This document shows, piece by piece, positions 1,083 through 54,738 of a DNA stretch of 64,000 nucleotides. The position numbers were made by a program, and so were the translations under genes. This DNA is from Escherichia coli (GTDB lineage: Bacteria; Pseudomonadota; Gammaproteobacteria; Enterobacterales; Enterobacteriaceae): NCBI RefSeq assembly GCF_001677475.2, contig NZ_CP015229.1; one strand, given 5' to 3'. Position 1 is the first letter of the stretch. Each line of letters opens with the position of its first letter. The notes beneath the pieces were generated by a model. It searched no databases, had not been told where the DNA came from, and saw only the letters and a list, made by a program, of their open reading frames with translations.

Positions 1083-3179
1083 TTACTCAATGCGTACAAA
1101 AAGACCGATATAGCCACGCGTTGTATCGTGACTAATGCGGGTCCCCGAAAGCGCCGTGTAACGACCGGGGAAGTTGTATTCACCAGCACCGCCAATCACA
1201 ACCTGCGGTGAGGATGCGTATGTCCCTGTATCGCTAACCCGTGCACTCATAGCCAGAGGGCCAAGACGGGAACCCGGCACAATATCACCGAGCCCCAGAG
1301 ACGCATCTGCACCAAAACTCTCCCCCTGATATGCCGCCATAATCGGCACACCAACGGCCGGGTATTTATAATATGAGCCTGAGCCCGCCATCCTGGACAG
1401 CAGGTACGCCAGTGAATCTCCGTCGTATACAACTACCCGCGATGACATGTTCCAGCTGTTATCGCTGTCGTTGTACCGGTACTGCATATAGTGAATACAG
1501 TGTTCACCCTGATAATACTGGTTGTAGCACATCAGGGTTTTAAATTTGCGGACTGTGTCGGATTCACTGTTGGCGTACGGTGACCACATCACATCAATAA
1601 TGCCGTTAAATTGCGTGGTACCGGTAAGCAGTTGCGAGGAGTCTGTAATACTGACCGCATACCGCCCCGGCGTGACTTTCTTCAACCACTCAACGAAATC
1701 AGACAGCCCCTCAAACGCCAGAGCGTCAGTGCTGGTGAATGCCTGTCCAAACCCATACATCCCGGACAGGGCCAGCCTGCCCGGTGTGCGGTCACGGATA
1801 TCACTCTGGGGTTCCATCGTCGCAGCCGCGTTCAGCTCAAGCTCCGTGCGCATGGCTTCAGCCGTGTCATGCGCCAGTAATGCGCGGCCCTTCTCTGACA
1901 GCAGAGACAGTGAGGCATTCCCGTCTGTATTGAAGTACAGAAGATTATCTGCCCGTTGCGTCAGTGCGCTGATTGCCGTTAAGACGTCATTAAGCGGTTG
2001 TTTGCCTGCCAGCGCGTTTGTGATTGTCGTCGCAAAGTTCGGGTCATTGCCCAGCGCCGCTGCCAGCTCGTTCAGGGTGTCCAGAACTTCCGGCGATGAG
2101 CCAACCAGCGCAGCAAGCAGTTTGCGCACAAACGCTGCGTTCGCTGCTTCCAGACCGGCGGCATCATCCGGTGGGGTTGGGGTGGTTGGGGTGCCGGTGA
2201 AGGCCGGACTGTCCAGTGGCGCTTTTGTTTTCGCCTCGTCCATGACGTCTTTGACAGCCTTTGGCGTGGCAGCCAGTTCCTCGCTGTCGTTGTCCGTATC
2301 ACTACAGAGTTGCACCAGACCTTTTTCTGTCGTGGAGGCATTTGTTGCATTCAGGTCATCAACTATCTGCTGCGCCTCATCCCTGTACTGTTTCGCTTCC
2401 TGCGCATTGTCTGCACCTGCATCCTGGCTGGCTTTAGCCTGTCGGGCGTATTCGGCGGCACTGTTTTTGTGCCCCAGCGCCGCATTTGCCGACAGTTCTG
2501 AACTGGTCGCTGCTGATGATGCGGCATTATGATAAAGGCGGGCGCGTTCGGCGGCATCGACTGATTCGTCCCGCGCTGTGCCTGATGACTGTGCGCTGTT
2601 TTCTGCCTCACCCGCAAAACGTTCCGCATCATCACGGGCCGTTGCGGTTGTCGTCACATCCTGTGCCGTCTGCTGTGCGTTTCCGGCTGCAGCTTCGGCG
2701 CTCTGCTGTGTCTGATTTTTTAGCTCTTCTGCCTCATCCTTACTAACCGCCGCAGATGTTGCTGCATTGATTGCATCATCAGCAGCTGTTTCTGCTCTCT
2801 CCCTGTCACTGACCACCTGCTCAGACAAGCGAACAACGGTATTTACCATTTCCTCAAAACGCTTCATTACCTCAGGGCGTAAATCACCCTCCTTTGGTGC
2901 ATCCAGAAAAGCATTCAGCGTATCCGGCTCATCTGTCGGTGCAACATAAATTTCCCCCGCCTTTACAGGAGGATGCCCTGAGCGGGACAAAAATACATCA
3001 TAAAATCCCGGCTCAGCATTAATAGTATACCCGCCATCACTTCCCGTAAGACAGGTTGCCACAATATTAACCACAACTGTCGGACTGGTTCTTCTGGCTC
3101 GCAATTCAATCGCACAGTTTACGACAGGCTCACCCGCTCCGTCCTTCAGGACACCTGAAATCTTTACTGCCATATTCAC
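1083..3179 (-). CDS. stf: Side tail fiber protein (Stf-like)
   Basis: 698-aa ORF between lom and tfa; Ala/Gln-rich coiled shaft and C-terminal receptor-binding region. Confidence 0.8.
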   Translation of the reverse strand: MNMAVKISGVLKDGAGEPVVNCAIELRARRTSPTVVVNIVATCLTGSDGGYTINAEPGFYDVFLSRSGHPPVKAGEIYVAPTDEPDTLNAFLDAPKEGDLRPEVMKRFEEMVNTVVRLSEQVVSDRERAETAADDAINAATSAAVSKDEAEELKNQTQQSAEAAAGNAQQTAQDVTTTATARDDAERFAGEAENSAQSSGTARDESVDAAERARLYHNAASSAATSSELSANAALGHKNSAAEYARQAKASQDAGADNAQEAKQYRDEAQQIVDDLNATNASTTEKGLVQLCSDTDNDSEELAATPKAVKDVMDEAKTKAPLDSPAFTGTPTTPTPPDDAAGLEAANAAFVRKLLAALVGSSPEVLDTLNELAAALGNDPNFATTITNALAGKQPLNDVLTAISALTQRADNLLYFNTDGNASLSLLSEKGRALLAHDTAEAMRTELELNAAATMEPQSDIRDRTPGRLALSGMYGFGQAFTSTDALAFEGLSDFVEWLKKVTPGRYAVSITDSSQLLTGTTQFNGIIDVMWSPYANSESDTVRKFKTLMCYNQYYQGEHCIHYMQYRYNDSDNSWNMSSRVVVYDGDSLAYLLSRMAGSGSYYKYPAVGVPIMAAYQGESFGADASLGLGDIVPGSRLGPLAMSARVSDTGTYASSPQVVIGGAGEYNFPGRYTALSGTRISHDTTRGYIGLFVRIE

Positions 3180-3238
3180 CCCACAAAAAAGCCCGCCTGA
3201 ACCCGGCGGGCTGTCATAACACTGTGTTACCTGGCTAA

Positions 3239-3838
3239 TCAGAACTTATAACCGACACCCACGATGAAACCGTCAGTGCGCCAGTCGCCACTGCCGGAGC
3301 CTTCATAAGCAATATCAATAGCCACGGATTCGGTCGGGTTAAACTGCACGCCAGCTCCCCACGCCAGAGACGTGTTGCTGTGGCGACCGTCATCACTTCC
3401 GGTCAGCACATCGTGCGTTTTCCCCTTATTGTCAGTTACGCGGAGATAATCCCCGGAGAAAGTCGACACACGGCTGTAAGCCACACCCGCCATCGCATAC
3501 GCGCTGAACCATTCATTCACGCGCACAGACGGCCCCGCCATTACGCTGAACCAGCGGTTACGAACGGAATCTTCATGCCAGCGGGTATCGCTGTAACGGG
3601 TCAGCTGGCGATTCTTGTCTCCTGCATAGCTGAATGACGTCACCATACCCAGTGTGTCCGTAAACTCATAACGGTATTTCACGTTAATCCCGTTCAGATC
3701 ATCGCTGCCGGGAACGTTCGTCGAGACATGAAGATACCCCGCGCTCAGCGTGGACTGATGTTCAGACGCCCATGCAGGCGCACCGGATAAGGCCAGACAA
3801 ATGGCTGCGGACAAAATGGCGGCATAAAGTTTACGCAT
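3239..3838 (-). CDS. lom: Outer membrane beta-barrel protein Lom (Ail/Lom family)
   Basis: 199 aa, signal peptide (AAICLALSGAPAWA), C-terminal ...GYKF, located right after J as in lambda. Confidence 0.85.
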   Translation of the reverse strand: MRKLYAAILSAAICLALSGAPAWASEHQSTLSAGYLHVSTNVPGSDDLNGINVKYRYEFTDTLGMVTSFSYAGDKNRQLTRYSDTRWHEDSVRNRWFSVMAGPSVRVNEWFSAYAMAGVAYSRVSTFSGDYLRVTDNKGKTHDVLTGSDDGRHSNTSLAWGAGVQFNPTESVAIDIAYEGSGSGDWRTDGFIVGVGYKF

Positions 3839-26122: not shown

Positions 26123-26383
26123 TAAGTTTACGCATGTCTGATAGAATCTGTAGAACCTGTTTATATAAAAAGCCCCTCAGGAGAGGGGCATGCTTGCATG
26201 GTGCCGGGTGCCTCCCGATGAATTCAGTATCAGTACCCGAATCAGCATAATAAAGGAGCAGAACAGAAACATACATCACTCATATGCCCACCACCCGGGG
26301 GGATCCACCATGCAAATTTTTTCTAACAAAAGCTCCGTCAACCAGCAATGCCCAATCAACTTAATTGTGATGGATTTAACATT

Positions 26384-28067: not shown

Positions 28068-28142
<75 letters not shown>

Positions 28143-28145
28143 ATA

Positions 28146-28221
<76 letters not shown>

Positions 28222-33148: not shown

Positions 33149-33304
33149 TTACTCCTCAGATTCGTAAGCTGTGAAGACAGCGACCTCCGTCTGGCCGGTT
33201 CGGATTCGCACCTCGCAGAGGTCTTTCCTCGTTACCAGTGCCGTCACTATGACGGTTAAACAGATGACGATCAGGGCGATTAACATCGCCTTTTGCTGCT
33301 TCAT
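33149..33304 (-). CDS. hokD: Hok/Gef-family membrane toxin (HokD/RelF-like)
   Basis: MKQQKAMLIALIVICLTVIVTALVTRKDLCEVRIRTGQTEVAVFTAYESEE, near-identical to E. coli HokD; longer overlapping in-frame ORF is mok-like. Confidence 0.9.
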   Translation of the reverse strand: MKQQKAMLIALIVICLTVIVTALVTRKDLCEVRIRTGQTEVAVFTAYESEE

Positions 33305-33594
33305 AGCCTGCTTCTCCTTGCCTTTCGGCACGTAAGAGGCTAACCTACATGTGCAAAGCATGAAATTGGCCTCAGATTAATGTTAAGCGTCTTGCCGGAC
33401 GCGTAATGTTAACTGGGGCTTTTCTCTATCTGCCGTTGGTGTTCATGCCCGAGGCAGATAGCCTCAAGCACCCGCTGCAATTCTACTTAACTCTCCTTTT
33501 CCCGCAAACCGTTTTTATCCCCAGCGGCAAATCGAATACACCACCAGCGCCACCGCAAGTGCAATTCCTACCGTTGTGAATGCTTCAGGCCAGG

Positions 33595-37801: not shown

Positions 37802-38324
37802 ACGAACCTCTGGCAGACATTTGTTTATCTGCAAAGTAATAATGATATTGCTGACGATACGCATGCTTGAAAGCAATAGCTTTTTCTATAAGCTCGTCAG
37901 TCTCACGTTCCACAACAGATGGATCCGCAAAAAGCAGCCCGGACTCCACCACATCGCCATATTCTTTGTTTAACCCGGCGATCATGTACGTAATGCTTTT
38001 TCCGTCAGTAATTTCACAATACAACCTGAAATCGCTGATCCGGATAGCCTCCATAATTGCCGGAATCAGCGCCGTGAATTTTTCCCGCTTATCCCTGGTG
38101 TCGATAGCTTTCCAGCGTTCGAATATCTTCACCCGGTTAACGCCCAGCGCCCGTTGATCAACCTCGCCATCATTAAACGTGACGCGTTGAACATCGATGT
38201 TCGGGCGTTCTTTCAGAGCCCAGAATGCTTCCGTGATTAAAATAGTCGCCTGCTCCTGTGTCATTCCTGGTCGGCATACCCAGGCATCCAGAGCCTCACA
38301 AACCTGTTCAGGGGTGATTTTCAT
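37773..38324 (-). CDS. YdaT-like regulatory protein (cII-position gene)
   Basis: 183 aa starting MKITPEQVCEALDAW..., located between the cro-like gene and O. Confidence 0.45.
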   Translation of the reverse strand: MKITPEQVCEALDAWVCRPGMTQEQATILITEAFWALKERPNIDVQRVTFNDGEVDQRALGVNRVKIFERWKAIDTRDKREKFTALIPAIMEAIRISDFRLYCEITDGKSITYMIAGLNKEYGDVVESGLLFADPSVVERETDELIEKAIAFKHAYRQQYHYYFADKQMSARGSYEYRCTTVG

Positions 38325-38535
38325 TGTTCAACCGCCCCGCCCGCTTTGCCTTACGATATTCGTCATAAACTTTGGGGTCGTACTGAAGTTCCCCGCCGGA
38401 TGCCTCTTGCAGGCGCATCGCGCGACCTTCAGGAACCAGTTCCCCCCATGCAGCAATGCTTGCCAGCCTAACTCCTGCGGCATTGGCAAGCTTTGTTTTG
38501 CTGCCAAAAAACGCTATAGCATCAATTTTCAACAT
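38308..38535 (-). CDS. dicC: Cro-like repressor (DicC-like)
   Basis: 75 aa, MLKIDAIAFFGSKTKLANAAGVRLASIAAWGELVPEGRAMRLQEASGGELQYDPKVY, P22 Cro/DicC-type. Confidence 0.75.
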   Translation of the reverse strand: MLKIDAIAFFGSKTKLANAAGVRLASIAAWGELVPEGRAMRLQEASGGELQYDPKVYDEYRKAKRAGRLNNENHP

Positions 38536-38611: not shown

Positions 38612-39019
38612 ATGAAAAACGAAACCTTCGGTGCTCGCCTCTTACATAGGCGTAAAAAATTAAAACTGTCTCAGGCCGCATTAGGTAAGCTGGTCAAAGT
38701 GGCTCACGTAACAATTTCTCAATGGGAAAGAGATGAAACACAGCCGGCGGGGAAAAGATTATTCGCACTGAGCCAAGCGCTTCAGTGCTCACCGACTTGG
38801 CTTCTTTTTGGGGATGAAGATAAACAACCAGGCGAACCGATCCCGGATAATCAGCCAGCCATTCTGACAGAAGATCAAAAAGAGTTACTTCAACTGTTCG
38901 ACGCACTGCCTGAGTCAGAGCAAAAGGCCCTGTTGTCAGAGATGCGTGCTCGAGTTGAAAATTTCAACAAACTTTTTGAAGAACTACTCAAAGCTCGCAA
39001 AAGAAGCGCAAACAAATAA
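38612..39019 (+). CDS. dicA: Prophage repressor DicA-like (XRE HTH, no LexA-type peptidase domain)
   Basis: 135 aa; LSQAALGKLVKVAHVTISQWERDETQP...CSPTWLLFGDEDKQP...NFNKLFEELLKARKR resembles DicA. Confidence 0.8.
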   Translation: MKNETFGARLLHRRKKLKLSQAALGKLVKVAHVTISQWERDETQPAGKRLFALSQALQCSPTWLLFGDEDKQPGEPIPDNQPAILTEDQKELLQLFDALPESEQKALLSEMRARVENFNKLFEELLKARKRSANK

Positions 39020-39221: not shown

Positions 39222-39377
39222 ATGGATACTATCGATCTTGGTAACAACGAATCTCTGGTGTGCGGCGTGTTCCCAAACCAGGACGGCACATTCACCGCGA
39301 TGACGTATACCAGAAGCAAAACGTTTAAAACCGAAGCTGGCGCGCGTCGCTGGCTGGAAAGAAATTCAGGTGAGTGA
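39222..39377 (+). CDS. ydfA: YdfA-like small protein (DUF1391)
   Basis: 51 aa MDTIDLGNNESLVCGVFPNQDGTFTAMTYTRSKTFKTEAGARRWLERNSGE; SD GGGGAAATGAGG. Confidence 0.6.
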   Translation: MDTIDLGNNESLVCGVFPNQDGTFTAMTYTRSKTFKTEAGARRWLERNSGE

Positions 39378-39378
39378 T

Positions 39379-39507
39379 ATGGATTTCGACGCAATCATGG
39401 AAAAGGCTTACGAAGAATACTTCGAAGGCCTTGCCGAAGGCGAAGAAGCTCTCAGCTTCAGTGAGTTTAAACAGACGCTTTCCAGTTCGGCAAAATCTAA
39501 CGACTGA
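39379..39507 (+). CDS. ydfB: YdfB-like small acidic protein
   Basis: 42 aa MDFDAIMEKAYEEYFEGLAEGEEALSFSEFKQTLSSSAKSND; start 1 nt after ydfA stop. Confidence 0.5.
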   Translation: MDFDAIMEKAYEEYFEGLAEGEEALSFSEFKQTLSSSAKSND

Positions 39508-39536: not shown

Positions 39537-39752
39537 ATGCAGAAACGAGAACCCGTCATCATCGCACCAGACTATACCGAGGATGAAATTTACGAATGGA
39601 TGTGCGGAAAGATACGCGCCATTAATTACCTGAAGCAGGCCGCTGACTACAAAGAGCGCCTCTCTAAAGAACTGGTGTCAGCGGAGCAGGATATTACCAC
39701 TCTGGCAAAAAGCGCGGCATTAAACGTTTCGCGAGTGACTGAAAACTACTGA
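39537..39752 (+). CDS. ydfC: YdfC-like protein
   Basis: 71 aa MQKREPVIIAPDYTEDEIYEWMCGKIRA... Confidence 0.55.
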   Translation: MQKREPVIIAPDYTEDEIYEWMCGKIRAINYLKQAADYKERLSKELVSAEQDITTLAKSAALNVSRVTENY

Positions 39753-39841: not shown

Positions 39842-40288
39842 CTAACCACAAAGAAATCGCATCAATTTGGATTTTGTGGGCAACTTCTCTTGTTGTTCGA
39901 TGGAGACGCCCATTTTGATCTGTGTTTTTAAGATCGCAATATCTTTAAGTGATGACCAAATATGACCATCTGTTTTTTCCAGAATTTTTAACTGAATTTT
40001 CAATTCCGAATCAGAATATTTTTCTGCATCATCAAAAAGCTGCAAATATTCTGCGGATTTTCTCATGGCATTACCTGACTTTTGTCCGAATCCATAAATC
40101 GTTTGGACGGTTGCGATCACAACAATAAAAACGCCAGAAATTTCCGGAATGAATCCGCCAATGACAGATGAACCGAGGATAACACTCACTACTGAGAGAA
40201 GTTTATCGAGACGACCAGTCGCTACAGAAAATAGTTGCTCAAGAAAATAGCCATATAAAATTCTGTCAAGAATATCATCCCGGTCCAT
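39842..40288 (-). CDS. Hypothetical two-TM membrane protein (accessory, antisense to dicB operon)
   Basis: 148 aa, SD AGGTGA; adjacent TM helices LLSVVSVILGSSVIGGFI and ISGVFIVVIATVQTIYGF; low-GC DNA. Confidence 0.55.
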   Translation of the reverse strand: MDRDDILDRILYGYFLEQLFSVATGRLDKLLSVVSVILGSSVIGGFIPEISGVFIVVIATVQTIYGFGQKSGNAMRKSAEYLQLFDDAEKYSDSELKIQLKILEKTDGHIWSSLKDIAILKTQIKMGVSIEQQEKLPTKSKLMRFLCG

Positions 40289-40294
40289 ACATCA

Positions 40295-40442
40295 TCACCT
40301 GCTTGTTTGGTTGTTGCTGTTCCCCCTCTCCTCCGAAGGAGTTGGAGATGGTTTTGGTCGAATGTTTTTCTCTGGTATGTGATCCCAGACTGTTTTATGC
40401 GTCGAATTGCCACCACCTGCTTGTGCTCTTTGCTCTGTCATA
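40295..40442 (-). CDS. Hypothetical 48-aa Pro/Gly/Asn-rich peptide upstream of the 2-TM protein (longer 87-aa frame to 40558 possible)
   Basis: MTEQRAQAGGGNSTHKTVWDHIPEKNIRPKPSPTPSEERGNSNNQTSR with SD AAGGAAA; stop 7 nt before next gene. Confidence 0.4.
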
Positions 40443-40746
40443 TGATTTCCTTGGATCGTTGGGGATATCCAGATTATACAGATTTCCTGTCGTTGGGGAA
40501 TGACGGAAACCACCTCGCCTGACGTGGTTAAAAGCAGGCACACAACACGAAAGCGCACGGCGAAGTTCGTCTCACTGTACGGTGTCGGTAAATTTAATTC
40601 GACCGTGCGCTTCCGGTTGTGGCACTCCGCGAAATGACGCGGCGGTAAGTATGGCGGGGTTATTCTTTCCCCGTTGAGGACACCGGGTTGTCAGGTTGAC
40701 CATACGCTTAAGTGACAACCCCGCTGCAACGCCCTCTGTTATCAAT

Positions 40747-40799
40747 ATTCTGGTGACATTTGGCGGTATCAGTTTTACTCCGTGACTGCTCTGCCGCCC
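40747..40799 (+). ncRNA. dicF: DicF small RNA
   Basis: TTCTGGTGACATTTGGCGGTATCAGTTTTACTCCGTGACTGCTCTGCCGCCC followed by TTTTT, matches DicF sRNA upstream of dicB. Confidence 0.8.
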
Positions 40800-40983
40800 T
40801 TTTTAAAAGTGAATTTTGTGATGCGGTGAATGCGGCTCAGCGCACGCGGAACAGTTAAATCGGTAAAGAGGTCATTTGCTGAGTAACGGGAATGCTCTGT
40901 ATCCGGCGTTAATTGTTAACTGGTTAACGTCACCTGGAGGCACCAGGCACTGCATCACAAAATTCATTGTTGAGGACGCGATA

Positions 40984-41172
40984 ATGGAAAAGTTATCATG
41001 CAATGCCAGTACGTCTGAACTTCGTTTCGAAATTGGCGTTATCACTGGAGAAAAAACATTTATTGAAGACGCCATTAAGCAGAGAAAACTCGAGCAGGAC
41101 CTGTTAAATGAAGTATGCATTCCTTCAATGCTGGCTCGTCTGGACCTGCTGCAAAAAGGATATAAACAATGA
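40984..41172 (+). CDS. dicB: Cell-division inhibitor DicB
   Basis: 62 aa MEKLSCNASTSELRFEIGVITGEKTFIEDAIKQRKLEQDLLNEVCIPSMLARLDLLQKGYKQ. Confidence 0.8.
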   Translation: MEKLSCNASTSELRFEIGVITGEKTFIEDAIKQRKLEQDLLNEVCIPSMLARLDLLQKGYKQ

Positions 41173-41360
41173 ATACAACATTTGCACTCGTTCTGACAGT
41201 TTATCTTGTTTCCGGCGAATCTCTTGAGCTGGTGACTGGCTTATACGGTTCAATGAAAGAATGCATGGCTGCCGCAGCAGAACAAAAAATTCCCGGTAAC
41301 TGTTATCCGGTAGATAAAGCTACTCACACTAATAATAACGAAATACCGGCGGGACTTTAA
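41169..41360 (+). CDS. ydfD: YdfD-like small protein with N-terminal hydrophobic segment
   Basis: 63 aa MNTTFALVLTVYLVSGESLEL...; overlaps dicB stop. Confidence 0.55.
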   Translation: MNTTFALVLTVYLVSGESLELVTGLYGSMKECMAAAAEQKIPGNCYPVDKATHTNNNEIPAGL

Positions 41361-41453
41361 AACAGCACCGAAATAAACATCCGGTTTCATTTTTATATGC
41401 CAGCAATGGCAGGGATTTGTTCACCCTTAAATCTGTAATGAGGTTAAAACAAA

Positions 41454-43925
41454 ATGAATAAAGTCTTTATTTGCGCAGCTATTCCGGACGAACAGGCAAT
41501 AAAGGAAGAAGGTGCAGTCGCTGTGGCCTCTGCCATTGAAGCCGGTGACGAGCGCCGCGCCCGTGCCAAATTTACCTGGCAATTCCTGGAGCAATATCCG
41601 GCTGCTCAGGACTGCGCTTATAAATTTCTTGTCTGTGAGGATAAACCCGGCATGCCCCGCCCTGCCATTGACTCCTGGGATACCGAATATATGCAGGAAA
41701 ACCGCTGGGATGAGGAATGCGCTTCCTTTGTTCCGGTCGAACCAGAATCCGATCCGATGAACGTCAATTTTGACAAGCTGTCCCCTGAAGTACAGAACGC
41801 GGTCCTGATTAAGTTCGGTACATGTGAAAACATCACCGTTGATATGGCGATTGACGCTCAGGAATTACTGCAGGAAGACGTGGCTACCTTTGACGGGCAT
41901 ATCGTTGAAGCACTGATGAAAACGCCTGAAATTAACGCTATGTATCCGGAACGCAAACTGTTCGCTATCGGATGGGTTAAACACAAATGTAAGCCGGGTA
42001 CCAAATGGACCGAAATTCAGGCTGAATTACGTAACTGGAAAAAACGGCAGGACGCAGAGCGCAAAGAGACTGGAAAATACACGTCTGTTGTTGATCTTGC
42101 CCGCGCCAGAGTCAACCGACATAGCACTGAAAACTCAGCAGAAAAAATCAATTCTGTCACTGCCGCCATTCGTCGCGAATACAAGCAGACCTGGAAAACA
42201 CTGGATAAAGAACTGGCCTATGCTCTCTGGCCTGGTGACATTGATGTCCGGAACATTGACGGCAGCATCCATAGATGGGCAAAAAATGAAGTTATCGACA
42301 AGGATCGCGAAGACTGGAAACGCATCTCCGCATCAATGCGCAAACAGCCTGATGCGATTCGCTACAGCCGTCAGACGATTTTTGGCCTTGTTCGTGAACG
42401 TCCGGTCGACATTCACAAAGACCCCGTGGCACTGAATAAATACATCACTGAATACCTTGCGACAAAGGGCGTGTTTGAAGATGAAGAAGAAGATCAGAGC
42501 GTTGTTGATGTTCTCCAGTCGTCAGCATCACAAACTGATGCAGTGGAAACTGAAGTACCTGATACCCAAAAAAATGAAAGCGCGCTGGAAGATGAATCAT
42601 CTGTAGAGCGTGAGGGGCCGTTCTACTTCCTCTTCAGCGATAAGGATGGAGAAAAATACGGTCGCGCAAACAAACTTTCAGGTCTGAATAAGGCGCTCGC
42701 TGCAGGGGCTACTGAAATCACGAAAGAAGAATATTTTGCTCGAAAAAACGGTACATACTCAGGTTCACAACAAAATACTGGTGCATCTGACACGACCGCA
42801 CAACCAGAGCCGGTAAAAGTTACTGCTGACGAAGTGAACAAAATTATGCAGGCAGCCAATATCAGCCTGCCTGACGCCAGTCAGTTGCTCGCTGCATCAC
42901 GTGGTGAATTTGTTGCAGGGATTAGCGACCCGAATGATCTGAAATGGATTAAAGGGATCCAGACCCGCGATTCTATGAACCAAAACCAGCAAGAAACGGA
43001 ACAGAACGACCAGAAAGCGGAACAAAGCAGCCCAAATGCGCAACAAAACGAGCCAGAAACGAAACAATCCGAACCAGTAGTGCAACAGGAACCGGAAAAA
43101 GTCTGCACCGCCTGCGGTCAGAGCGGTGGCGGCAACTGCCCCGATTGTGGCGCGGTCATGGGCAACGCAACATACCAGGAAACATTCGATGAAGAGAATC
43201 AGGTTGAAGCTCAGGAGAATGATCCGGAGGAAATGGAAGGCGCTGAACATCCACACAAGGAGAACACTGGCGGCAATCAGCATCACGCCAGCGATAGTGA
43301 AACTGGCGAGACGGCAGATCCCTTAATTACGGTGAACAGTCATCACGTTATCACATCCACCAGCAGGACGTGTGACCATCTAATGATCGACCTTGAAGCC
43401 ATGGGAATAAATCCTGATGCCCCGATTATCTCAATAGGTGCAATATTTTTCGATCCGCAAACCGGAGATATGGGACCGGAATTTAGTAAGACTGTCGATC
43501 TGGAAACTGCTGGCGGAGTCATTGATCGGGACGCCATTAAATGGTGGCTTAAGCAATCACGCGAAGCGCAATCTGCCATTATGACCGATGAAATCCCGTT
43601 AGATGATGCACTGTTACAATTGCGGGAATTTATCGACGAAAACTCCGGTGAATTTTTTGTTCAGGTCTGGGGAAATGGAGCAAACTTCGACAACACGATT
43701 TTGCGCCGTTCATACGAACGGCAGGGGATCCCCTGCCCGTGGCGTTACTACAACGATCGCGATGTGCGCACAATCGTTGAGCTGGGGAAAGCCATAGACT
43801 TCGATGCCAGAACTGCTATCCCATTCGAAGGTGAGCGCCATAATGCACTTGATGACGCTCGTTACCAGGCAAAATACGTTTCAGCTATCTGGCAAAAACT
43901 GATCCCGAGTCAGGCTGATTTTTAA
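41454..43925 (+). CDS. Large prophage exonuclease (YdfE/RecE-position) with Zn-ribbon and C-terminal DEDDh 3'-5' exonuclease domain
   Basis: 823 aa; CTACGQSGGGNCPDCG ribbon; C-terminal DnaQ-like motifs (MIDLEAMG..., HNALDDARY). Confidence 0.65.
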   Translation: MNKVFICAAIPDEQAIKEEGAVAVASAIEAGDERRARAKFTWQFLEQYPAAQDCAYKFLVCEDKPGMPRPAIDSWDTEYMQENRWDEECASFVPVEPESDPMNVNFDKLSPEVQNAVLIKFGTCENITVDMAIDAQELLQEDVATFDGHIVEALMKTPEINAMYPERKLFAIGWVKHKCKPGTKWTEIQAELRNWKKRQDAERKETGKYTSVVDLARARVNRHSTENSAEKINSVTAAIRREYKQTWKTLDKELAYALWPGDIDVRNIDGSIHRWAKNEVIDKDREDWKRISASMRKQPDAIRYSRQTIFGLVRERPVDIHKDPVALNKYITEYLATKGVFEDEEEDQSVVDVLQSSASQTDAVETEVPDTQKNESALEDESSVEREGPFYFLFSDKDGEKYGRANKLSGLNKALAAGATEITKEEYFARKNGTYSGSQQNTGASDTTAQPEPVKVTADEVNKIMQAANISLPDASQLLAASRGEFVAGISDPNDLKWIKGIQTRDSMNQNQQETEQNDQKAEQSSPNAQQNEPETKQSEPVVQQEPEKVCTACGQSGGGNCPDCGAVMGNATYQETFDEENQVEAQENDPEEMEGAEHPHKENTGGNQHHASDSETGETADPLITVNSHHVITSTSRTCDHLMIDLEAMGINPDAPIISIGAIFFDPQTGDMGPEFSKTVDLETAGGVIDRDAIKWWLKQSREAQSAIMTDEIPLDDALLQLREFIDENSGEFFVQVWGNGANFDNTILRRSYERQGIPCPWRYYNDRDVRTIVELGKAIDFDARTAIPFEGERHNALDDARYQAKYVSAIWQKLIPSQADF

Positions 43926-43977: not shown

Positions 43978-44187
43978 ATGGCTATGAGCAGCTTATTTTT
44001 AACCGAAGATGAATTGCTAATATTAACGGGCTGCAAATATGCAAGCCACCAGCGAAAATGGTTAATGGAAAACGGGCTTCCGTTCTATACCAATCGTAGT
44101 GGCAAACCGATTGTCAGCCGGGATCTATTTACCTGCAATAAAACTTTACCACCACGCGAGGTAGAGCCGAATTTTGGTGCAATCTGA
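43978..44187 (+). CDS. xis: Excisionase-like protein
   Basis: 69-aa ORF immediately upstream of and overlapping integrase start. Confidence 0.6.
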   Translation: MAMSSLFLTEDELLILTGCKYASHQRKWLMENGLPFYTNRSGKPIVSRDLFTCNKTLPPREVEPNFGAI

Positions 44188-45212
44188 TGGGAAGACGAAG
44201 GAAAAATCCTGAACACGAAAAATTACCTCCAAATGTATACCCAAATAAATATAGTTATGTATGGAAACCAACATCCAGAGAATCTGTCACACTAACCGCC
44301 ATCAAGGATGGTTTAGCTGCTTTATGGAAAAAGTATGAGGAAACTGTAAATAATCGCGATCGCGCAATGACATTCGGTCGCTTGTGGGAAAAATTCCTCG
44401 CCAGCGCCTATTACAGTGACCTCAGTCCAAGAACACAAAAAGATTATCTGCAACATCAAAAAAAGTTGCTTGCCGTATTCGGTAAGGTGCCGGCAGATTC
44501 CATAAAACCAGAACACATCCGTCGATACATGGACAAGAGAGGGGAACAGAGTAAAACGCAAGCCAACCATGAAAAAAGCAGTATGTCCCGCGTTTACAAT
44601 TGGGGGTATGAGCGAGGGTACGTGAAGGGTAACCCATGTGCAGGTGTAAGTAAATTCAAGGCCAAAAACCGCGAACGATATGTAACCGACAAAGAATACC
44701 AGGCAGTATTAAGTGTTGCACCTCTTCCTGTTTTTATCGCAATGGAAATTGCCTATCTGTGTGCAGCGAGGGTTTCCGATGTGTTATCACTGAAATGGGA
44801 GCAGATTGGAAACGACGGGATCTTTATCCAGCAAGGGAAAACAGGGAAAAAACAGATAAAAGCATGGAGTCCACGATTACAGGCGGCGATCGAAAAAGCA
44901 AAACAGTTACCAACATCTGCCTATGTAATCAGCAATCAATATGGCAACCGATATATGTACAAAGGTTTTAACGAAATGTGGGTAGAAGCAAGAAATCACG
45001 CAGGCAAAATTTCAGGTATTTTAACCGACTTCACCTTTCATGATCTGAAGGCGAAAGGAATTTCAGACTATGAAGGAAGCAGCCGGGATAAGCAACTTTT
45101 CTCTGGTCACAAAACCGAAGGGCAAGTGCTAATCTATGACAGAAAGGTTAAAGTTTCACCAACACTTGATGTCCCGTTACCTGATAATATTCCAAGAAAA
45201 TATTCCAAGTAA
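44187..45212 (+). CDS. int: Tyrosine integrase
   Basis: 341 aa; C-terminal catalytic region with R...HDLKAKG...GHKTEGQVLIY; 3' end 43 nt from serU. Confidence 0.9.
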   Translation: MGRRRKNPEHEKLPPNVYPNKYSYVWKPTSRESVTLTAIKDGLAALWKKYEETVNNRDRAMTFGRLWEKFLASAYYSDLSPRTQKDYLQHQKKLLAVFGKVPADSIKPEHIRRYMDKRGEQSKTQANHEKSSMSRVYNWGYERGYVKGNPCAGVSKFKAKNRERYVTDKEYQAVLSVAPLPVFIAMEIAYLCAARVSDVLSLKWEQIGNDGIFIQQGKTGKKQIKAWSPRLQAAIEKAKQLPTSAYVISNQYGNRYMYKGFNEMWVEARNHAGKISGILTDFTFHDLKAKGISDYEGSSRDKQLFSGHKTEGQVLIYDRKVKVSPTLDVPLPDNIPRKYSK

Positions 45213-45254: not shown

Positions 45255-45344
45255 GATTGAATTTTGGCGGAGAGAGGGGGATTTGAACCCCCGGTGGAGT
45301 TGCCCCCACTCCGGTTTTCGAGACCGGTCCGTTCAGCCGCTCCG
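45255..45344 (-). tRNA. serU: tRNA-Ser (anticodon CGA), serU; prophage attachment site
   Basis: 90-nt tRNA with long variable arm, anticodon loop CUCGAAA, GGTTCAAATCC T-arm, CCA end. Confidence 0.9.
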
Positions 45345-45447
45345 GCATCTCTCCGTTCAGATGGTTGCCATGATGCCAGGAAATTTGGCATTTTAACAGT
45401 CCCTGTCCGTGCAATTTTGTTCAAGTGACGAGTTTGCGAGCAAAACG

Positions 45448-46421: not shown

Positions 46422-46734
46422 AATTCTAAAAATTCGCTTTTTTAGCGCAATGTCACTGACCTTAGTTGAACATTGTTTTTTAACGGATAGCGGTTTTTTA
46501 ACATCTTAAGCGCCCTCGACCTTTATGGTTGAGGGCGTTTTGCTATGAACGCCATCACCATTTTCCCCTCGATTATAAAACTTGAGTTATTCAGTAGTCT
46601 CCCCTCTTGCAACTCACACCCAAAACTGCCTAACGAAAAGTTATTAATTTTCAATCATATTGCTATCAGGATTTACATTTTTTCGCTGTGCTAGAAAGGG
46701 CGCATTTATGTTAGCTCGTTCAGGGAAGGTCAGC

Positions 46735-54738
<8,004 letters not shown>

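Follow-up and report, generated by a model that had tools for sequence, protein, structure and literature searches.

We analyzed a stretch of 64 000 nt of Escherichia coli DNA (contig NZ_CP015229.1, here called the window) and in particular the early-left operon of a lambdoid prophage of the Qin/mEp460 type, which is integrated at tRNA-Ser beside mtfA. In this operon an intact dicF–dicB–ydfD module is followed by a full-length gene for an 823-aa YdfE-type protein with a C-terminal exonuclease domain of the DEDDh type, and no annealase gene accompanies it. We observed directly which parts of the operon are present and that they are intact, how the domains of the large protein are arranged, that an annealase is lacking, and that the leader RNA in front of dicF is conserved and structured. 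As an explanation we favor, and consider probable, a repressor-controlled early-left operon in which DicF would be produced by processing of a longer transcript and in which the intact YdfE would work as a stand-alone 3′–5′ exonuclease.

Architecture of the YdfE-type exonuclease and the missing annealase

The gene (41454–43925, plus strand) is an open reading frame (ORF) whose product matches PHROG 2082 over 823 of 823 positions. A first-pass annotation made from the sequence alone had proposed a Zn-ribbon and a C-terminal DEDDh exonuclease domain for this protein, and a domain search bears this out: Pfam PF16473, the family of Rv2179c/DexA-type 3′–5′ exonucleases, matches residues 642–813 (nt 43377–43892) with 221 bits, and a Cys knuckle as well as all five DEDDh residues are present. 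These five residues (D646, E648, D746, H796 and D801) are the same in T4 DexA and in P0124, a relative of 901 aa, when the sequences are aligned. Besides PF16473 the nuclease domain gives a weaker match to Pfam RNase_T. Among solved structures its only sequence match is T4 DexA (PDB 8kel, E 7.5e-5), which is a 3′–5′ DNA exonuclease.

The N-terminal part of the protein, from residue 1 to ~345, is covered by the YdfE_N/YdfE_C scaffold (Pfam PF27430 and PF27432); the complete architecture of PF27430, PF27432 and PF16473 was read from proteins that are 100% identical over a 630-aa query consisting of the first 630 residues. An AlphaFold2 model of residues 1–345 reached a pLDDT of 88.7. Residues 1–256 share 83% identity with the surviving part of ydfE in E. 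coli K-12, a pseudogene truncated by IS2, and on these sequence grounds the 823-aa protein is the uninterrupted form of that pseudogene. The middle of the protein (residues 262–626) is RecE-like, acidic and of low complexity, and holds the Cys4 knuckle (C551-x2-C554-x7-C562-x2-C565, nt 43104–43148) that the protein shares with RecE. It aligns with RecE residues 278–592 (E 1e-63, 38% identity), and the identity is very high across the last ~150 residues, the knuckle included.

RecE (exonuclease VIII) and RecT of the Rac prophage occupy the same early-left position just before xis and int, and relatives share the Pfam pieces Exonuc_VIII and YdfE_C. However, RecE combines a PD-(D/E)XK nuclease of 5′–3′ polarity with RecT, whereas here a DEDDh nuclease of 3′–5′ polarity occurs without RecT, and the first 260 residues of the 823-aa protein are unrelated to the RecE N-terminus. 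The PD-(D/E)XK domain (Pfam DUF3799), which scores 99 bits in K-12 RecE, is absent from the 823-aa protein, and the NCBIfam RecE equivalog NF007259 reaches 282.7 compared to a cut-off of 1269, with only model positions 437–603 matched. Judged by these comparisons the protein is not RecE. Phage records often label proteins of the 823-aa type ‘exodeoxyribonuclease VIII’ or ‘exonuclease VIII, ds DNA exonuclease’ (e.g. OV696610, PV340562 and ON470583); we regard this as a mis-annotation, because it is the non-catalytic region of RecE that is shared. The intact YdfE-type gene is thus a warning that this frequent database label is wrong, and in the literature that we found the mislabelling of YdfE-type genes is not evident.

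It had also been suggested from the sequence that the gene fills the recombination-gene slot with no annealing partner before xis. The next gene is indeed a DUF4224 xis-like gene, and the searches for RecT-, Bet- and Erf-type proteins remained negative across the window: with RecT (two versions), Bet, Exo and Gam of lambda, and Erf and Abc2 of HK022 as queries, tblastn and phmmer searches of the 64 kb in six reading frames gave no match better than E 0.08. Profile scans of every ORF from the repressor to the integrase detected no annealase, and the Prokaryotic Genome Annotation Pipeline (PGAP) lists none in the 99.9%-identical prophage of E. coli GB089. An annealase beside the nuclease, the arrangement of the two-component recombinases of the Red, RecET and Erf type, is not found at this locus.

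An exhaustive representative search showed that the YdfE_N scaffold defines a narrow family (178 clusters at 50% identity), whose C-termini are of three kinds: Rv2179c-like, PD-(D/E)XK and unrecognised. We compared the neighboring genes for one relative of the PD-(D/E)XK type and five of the DEDDh type only. Behind the gene of the PD-(D/E)XK relative (P0128) lies a RecT gene that overlaps it (Pfam, 125.8 bits), which is the same pairing as that of RecE in Rac, whereas the DEDDh versions, five of five with the 823-aa locus included, run straight into xis and int. Two relatives with unknown C-termini are also without RecT, and one of them is followed by a Sipho_Gp157 gene. The intact YdfE-type gene shows the long non-catalytic scaffold of RecE to be a reusable platform for at least two unrelated nucleases. 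In the few loci compared RecT travels with the PD-(D/E)XK version only, which offers a clean genetic handle on the unexplained N-terminal two-thirds of RecE. In the literature found, a nuclease swap between RecE and YdfE with co-varying RecT is not evident. Scaffold relatives at L012 5001–7109 and L015 5001–7226, one of them with a Sipho_Gp157 gene behind it in the place of RecT, have ~350 C-terminal residues without a Pfam match, which possibly represent a third type of nuclease or effector.

In our favored explanation the 823-aa protein joins a scaffold common to RecE-family proteins to a DexA/Rv2179c-type DEDDh 3′–5′ nuclease, which stands where RecE has its PD-(D/E)XK 5′–3′ nuclease. Most likely it acts alone, in the degradation or trimming of 3′ DNA ends during lytic development, and not as one half of a Red- or RecET-type recombinase, because its predicted polarity is opposite to that of annealase-feeding nucleases and because no annealase is present in the prophage or in its phage relatives. 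Several points weigh against this reading. The Pfam family was founded on Rv2179c, a protein described as an exoribonuclease, and an RNA substrate is thus possible. In the literature we found no experiment on a full-length YdfE-type protein and no paper on the function of YdfE, and for this reason a DNA rather than an RNA substrate, as well as the biological role of the nuclease, are what we infer. The ~280 low-complexity residues (~345–626) could hide an unrecognised function. The correlation between annealase and nuclease type rests on few, partly related loci, since only those mentioned above were compared. Finally, no transcript beyond ydfD was detected in K-12 (PMC10448788), which bears on the expression of the 823-aa gene.

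Possible alternative roles of the exonuclease

The domain belongs to the same DEDDh family (PF16473) as T4 DexA and its E. coli homologue EcD, with all catalytic residues kept, and it is conceivable that the protein is an ‘HREX’-type weapon of the prophage against other phages, which would degrade the hydroxymethylcytosine DNA of incoming T-even phages and spare the DNA of the host. According to Kang et al. 2025 (PMC12153337), EcD degrades the DNA of T4 while leaving unmodified DNA alone, and it guards cells against T4. With the primers of that study we recovered a 189-aa exonuclease of P2-like prophages, whose start, A78 and approximately the end fit EcD, and which shares 36% identity (E 1e-34) with the nuclease domain of the 823-aa protein. 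An EcD-fitting exonuclease of 189–196 aa is encoded in the early region of a P2-like prophage (L152 6401–6991, minus strand), near genes for a Cox-like protein, an integrase, a Dam methylase and a DUF4406 protein; the defence gene that was published as ‘bacterial’ would thus seem to belong to a prophage. However, the 189-aa protein was equated with EcD through the primers only, and the reverse primer fits its 3′ end imperfectly. DexA and EcD are also free-standing proteins of ~190–230 aa, whereas the domain in question forms the end of a protein of 823 aa, and a role as a weapon would leave the RecE-like scaffold of 630 aa unexplained. The features of DexA for tetramerisation and for recognition of 5-hydroxymethylcytosine (5hmC) could not be mapped onto the domain: the DexA segment that apparently holds the 5hmC-recognising D169 (numbering of the EcD study; position by counting) falls into an insertion that is absent here, and because the presumed recognition segment falls into this insertion the specificity for 5hmC is not transferable. 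From another direction, Ragunathan and Vanderpool reportedly found in 2019 that DicB protects against some phages, which would speak for a defensive role of the operon. However, the exonuclease gene is located in a repressed early operon behind two terminators and not in a lysogen-expressed moron position, and PADLOC returned no defence-system match for the exonuclease, nor for YdfC, YdfD and a 148-aa ORF of the same region. We consider a role in defence unlikely.

A contribution to recombination would require that the RecE-like scaffold recruits RecA/RecFOR of the host, or a RecT of the host or of another prophage, or that it anneals DNA itself. The gene sits in the exact slot of recE–recT and exo–bet before xis–int, residues 262–626 are homologous to RecE, relatives join the same scaffold to a RecE-type nuclease with RecT alongside, and Rac-type recET is found elsewhere in many E. 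coli strains, K-12 being an example. However, 3′–5′ degradation leaves 5′ overhangs, and it is established for SynExo systems that these are the wrong substrate for the loading of RecT, Bet or RecA. The 64-kb window encodes no annealase, the N-terminal 345 residues, as far as the predicted fold can tell, match no annealase fold, and the shared region is the part of RecE that is dispensable for its nuclease and recombineering activity; recombination is therefore quite improbable in our estimate. An RNA substrate would suit an exoribonuclease that trims the 3′ ends of operon RNAs such as DicF, or that degrades host RNA or nanoRNA in lytic growth. It would agree with the name of the best Pfam match (‘3′-5′ exoribonuclease Rv2179c-like’, 221 bits) and with the weaker RNase_T match, with the name ‘3′-5′ exoribonuclease’ that PGAP gives to many copies, and with the co-transcription of the gene with a small RNA (sRNA) that needs processing. 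The relatives with activity data (T4 DexA and EcD) are DNA exonucleases, however, the known processing of DicF takes only RNase III, RNase E and termination, and K-12 makes DicF despite its truncated ydfE, so we regard a function as an RNase as very unlikely. The defence, host-recombination and RNase explanations are each less well supported than a stand-alone DNA nuclease.

The dicF–dicB–ydfD module and its leader RNA

The first-pass annotation had recognized dicF with its terminator and had described the dicF–dicB–ydfD module as intact, and both statements hold. Rfam RF00039 matches 40748–40799 on the plus strand with 77 bits and an E of 2.9e-15 (gathering score 48), all model positions (1–52) are covered, and a T-run follows. 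The gene for this sRNA (53-nt form), the intrinsic terminator hairpin and the T-run included, spans 40748–40805. Two positions differ from K-12 dicF. The placement between ydfC and dicB in an operon of the DicA-controlled type, and the terminator hairpin with U-run, are both those of DicF. The gene dicB (40984–41172, plus strand) encodes a cell-division inhibitor of 62 aa with 55% identity to K-12 DicB (Pfam DicB, PF05358, 130.4 bits compared to a gathering score of 27, 62 of 62 profile positions; dicB in PGAP). Its end is overlapped by 4 nt by the start of a ydfD-like gene (DUF1482, 41169–41360, plus strand), whose product of 63 aa likewise scores above the gathering threshold (Pfam PF07358, 69 bits compared to 25) and is 63% identical to K-12 YdfD, annotated as a lysis protein. 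After ydfD a terminator-like hairpin with a T-rich run (41367–41396, plus strand) was found in the sequence and is kept in K-12; a terminator scan lists the same stem on the minus strand. The spacer between dicF and dicB (40812–40961, plus strand) gives a sub-threshold match to Rfam RF02076 (STnc100, 31.7 bits compared to a gathering score of 47, E 1.2e-4), and this spacer block is conserved behind every DicF-type hairpin. Elsewhere in the window, at 26167–26342 on the minus strand and upstream of the lysis genes, STnc100 is matched in full (93.7 bits).

In K-12, DicF has no promoter of its own and is excised from the dicBp transcript; transcription stops either at the terminator of DicF or downstream of ydfD (Ragunathan et al. 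2023, PMC10448788). RNase III makes the 5′ end of a 190-nt species, RNase E makes the 53-nt form, dicBp is repressed by DicA, and the longest transcript detected ends after ydfD (PMC10448788). By analogy, the DicA-like repressor of the prophage would keep the operon promoter off. Upon derepression a single transcript would run through ydfA–ydfB–ydfC, the leader, dicF, dicB, ydfD and onward; RNase III would cut a stem at ~40538–40623 to give the 190-nt species of structured leader and DicF, from which RNase E would release DicF of 53 nt. DicF, which is antisense to ftsZ and other mRNAs, and DicB, which acts through MinC, would then block cell division, a role that is played by Kil in lambda and by KilR in Rac, and YdfD would act as a small lysis-type toxin. 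Read-through of the DicF terminator and of the terminator after ydfD would reach the 823-aa gene and subsequently xis and int. A remark from 2016 that no sequenced phage carries DicF or DicB (PMC5069750) no longer holds, given the phages of the mEp460/Tritos type.

The 185 bp upstream of dicF (40560–40745) had been described in the first-pass annotation as a GC-rich, probably structured and ORF-free leader. We observed a GC content of 55–56% compared to ~42–48% in the flanks, and a fold z-score of −3.48 against shuffles for 40530–40810, so that the leader is GC-rich and structured; it is not free of ORFs, since a minus-strand ORF of 57 codons with a TTG start occupies 40572–40745. This ORF was rejected as a gene and is regarded as non-coding, because the length changes by insertion in homologues are not multiples of three; in addition, the RNA stems show compensatory changes. 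The gap without genes comprises ~460 bp (40289–40747), within which the conserved block spans ~40530–40747. An imperfect hairpin of ~27 bp (40538–40623, plus strand) folds here and is the probable RNase III processing stem; an equivalent stem forms in K-12. Counted back 190 nt from the terminator, the 5′ end of the 190-nt DicF is predicted at ~40610–40615, in the 3′ arm of the stem, and because the count ends in a stem of the RNase III type the leader is the published 5′ body of the 190-nt precursor. The processing sites in this strain are predicted from K-12.

The body of this precursor is a conserved structured core (40612–40741, plus strand), which is nearly identical in K-12 Qin and mEp460. 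Folding of the core suggests three hairpins (A, 40627–40642; B, 40655–40673; C, 40685–40721) and a possible pseudoknot of GUAUGG (40649–40654) with CCAUAC (40700–40705). In the comparison with K-12 the leader shares ~97% nucleotide identity, compared to 54–63% amino-acid identity for DicA, YdfC, DicB and YdfD. Using a fixed 28-nt pattern, with which the variant set was gathered, we recovered the core from at least 120 viral contigs; the P1-like sequences among them represent a single lineage. Over 26 distinct variants 93.8% of the pair cells are standard, compared to 34–53% with slid partners. At three pairs both partners change: one from U-A to C-G in hairpin C, one from U-A to C-G (with two U-G) in the possible pseudoknot, and the third in one A-U cell only, at the base of hairpin C, where pairing is poor (89–123). 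The shuffle control was only partly convincing, as in 143 of 500 shuffles the number of covarying pairs was at least as high as the one observed. Hairpin B forms a stem in 25 of the 26 variants with at least four different stem sequences, and the lengths of its segment (25, 26, 27, 28, 30 and 34 nt) are incompatible with a coding ORF on the minus strand. A covariance model of the leader (R1) scores 152 bits at 40612–40741. In a permissive Rfam search the leader matched no family; the search returned only DicF, the weak downstream STnc100-like match and noise.

The leader core is also found in phages without a canonical DicF, namely in 2H10 (L018 3501–3623), in Stx2c phages (L019 3001–3123) and in the ban-operon leader of P1 (L017 2501–2595), labelled ‘dicF-like region’. 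Downstream of the core these phages have a terminator hairpin of the DicF type whose 5′ segment is different, and the P1 leader shows compensatory changes in two helices. POCJ13 and STEC1589 have a further variant of the DicF-type hairpin, with most of the leader absent. The sRNA variants in the DicF position (L018 ~3640–3700, L019 ~3140–3200, L020 ~1590–1650 and L021 ~1640–1700) have the terminator-hairpin architecture and a downstream AAAGTGAATTTTGTGATGCGG block in common and differ in their 5′ segments; none of them reaches the gathering score of DicF. A conserved segment just upstream of the variant hairpin in 2H10 and the Stx2c phages includes the motif CACAACA, which Tree et al. 2014 quote as the consensus of GcvB targets. 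This motif raised the suspicion that the variant is AgvB, which was rejected, as the same authors assign AgvB to the late moron site 3′ of PR′.

From this distribution one can picture the folded leader of ~125 nt as an autonomous RNA module of many temperate phages, either a platform in cis for processing and stability or an element for terminator read-through; we put this forward tentatively and hold it to be rather doubtful. Such a module may head early operons, before interchangeable terminator-hairpin sRNAs with different 5′ seeds. In phages for which no N gene has been identified, it could serve read-through past the DicF terminator into dicB, ydfD, the exonuclease gene, xis and int. The putL and putR RNAs of HK022 are likewise structured, lie at the start of early operons upstream of a terminator and occur with no N gene identified, but this is a positional analogy only and a functional one is speculative. 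There is no detectable homology between them and the leader: homology to putL or putR was rejected, as R1 gave no match at E up to 10 and blastn-short found only an 8-mer, and the covariance model returned nothing in the HK022 put regions, in lambda or in Rac. The recurrence of the leader before different sRNA ‘heads’, P1 included, suggests a shared device for the biogenesis or read-through of phage sRNAs, which nobody seems to have examined. The autonomy of the module is not evident in the literature that we found, and a part of the leader story may already be known.

Genomic context of the operon

The locus is ordinary and widespread and represents another copy of an operon that is found in most E. 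coli genomes: parts of a 4.7-kb query were detected in 4832 of 5426 complete E. coli genomes, and at least 80% of the query in 287 genomes. It is no new kind of element; the sequence is already deposited in RefSeq, its families have curated entries and the operon is a textbook example. Over the stretch we observed 99.9% identity to E. coli GB089 and three further annotated genomes. In the PGAP annotation of GB089 the prophage is lambda-like, comprises ~47 kb and abuts tRNA-Ser and mtfA, and the order is tail fibres, head genes, lysis genes, Q, replication, immunity region, dicBF operon, the DUF4224 xis-like gene and integrase.

Upstream of the DicF leader, a dicC-like gene for a Cro-type regulator of 75 aa (38308–38535, minus strand) was identified as an ORF in the position of K-12 dicC and is named ‘Cro/CI family transcriptional regulator’ in GB089. 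The dicA-like gene for a CI-type repressor of 135 aa (38612–39019, plus strand; Pfam HTH_3, 51.9 bits) is 61% identical to K-12 DicA. The operon begins with ydfA (DUF1391, 51 aa, 39222–39377, plus strand; 94% identity to K-12 YdfA, DUF1391 in PGAP), followed on the same strand by ydfB (42 aa, 39379–39507; 93% identity to K-12 YdfB, ydfB in PGAP) and a ydfC-like gene (71 aa, 39537–39752; 54% identity to K-12 YdfC, PHROG 1744). Between ydfC and the leader lies the ORF of 148 aa (39842–40288, minus strand), to which no function is assigned; it matches PHROG 6315 (unknown function, E 5.8e-23), is hypothetical in PGAP and has no match in Pfam, NCBIfam or PADLOC. Judged by eye, its product has a central hydrophobic stretch. 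K-12 Qin is without an equivalent, and the distance from ydfC to dicF there is only 340 bp. Because K-12 has none and mEp460 has other genes there, this interval has the look of a variable slot for morons. Downstream of the exonuclease gene, the gene in the xis position encodes a DUF4224 protein of 69 aa (43978–44187, plus strand; Pfam DUF4224, 56.9 bits) and is followed by a tyrosine integrase gene (341 aa, 44187–45212, plus strand; Pfam Phage_integrase, 43.7 bits), the product of which has the same length as the integrase of vB_EcoS-689R5. The tRNA-Ser that serves as the attachment site (45268–45354, minus strand; Rfam tRNA, 57 bits) comes next to mtfA, in agreement with PGAP.

The gene order dicC, dicA, ydfA, ydfB, ydfC, dicF, dicB, ydfD, ydfE is common to the locus and the cryptic prophage Qin of K-12, and the orientation of the dicBF operon is the same. 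The block of leader and DicF is nearly identical in both, YdfA and YdfB are 93–94% identical, and the RNase III stem and the hairpin after ydfD are kept. However, ydfE is cut by IS2 in Qin, whereas ydfE (823 aa), xis and int are intact here; DicB, YdfC, YdfD and DicA are only 54–63% identical, the 148-aa ORF on the opposite strand has no counterpart in Qin, and the prophage is integrated at tRNA-Ser/mtfA and not at the Qin site. The viable phages mEp460, Tritos and vB_EcoS-689R5 share the gene order, and in the Tritos record DicF is annotated. In mEp460 and Tritos the repressor, the small ORFs, DicF, dicB, ydfD, an exonuclease of 822–823 aa, xis and int are present and an annealase is absent, as in the window. 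The exonuclease is 81–89% identical across mEp460, Tritos, HannyBb, Evi and PPompW, whereas these phages differ in their integrases, in their attachment sites and in what fills the variable slot that lies between ydfC and the leader.

A few further features of the window were recorded. The integrase gene (44187–45212) and a gene for an Ig-like adhesin of 2692 aa (46660–54738, in the yeeJ position) are open here, whereas the GB089 record marks both as frameshifted pseudogenes; the window hence derives from a strain that differs slightly, or from a better assembly. In the late-regulatory region of the prophage two neighboring tRNA genes (28071–28221, minus strand) correspond to tRNA-Gly and tRNA-Thr in GB089. 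In the early-right region the sok antitoxin RNA (33299–33473, minus strand, 112.8 bits) lies beside hokD, with which it forms a type I toxin–antitoxin pair.

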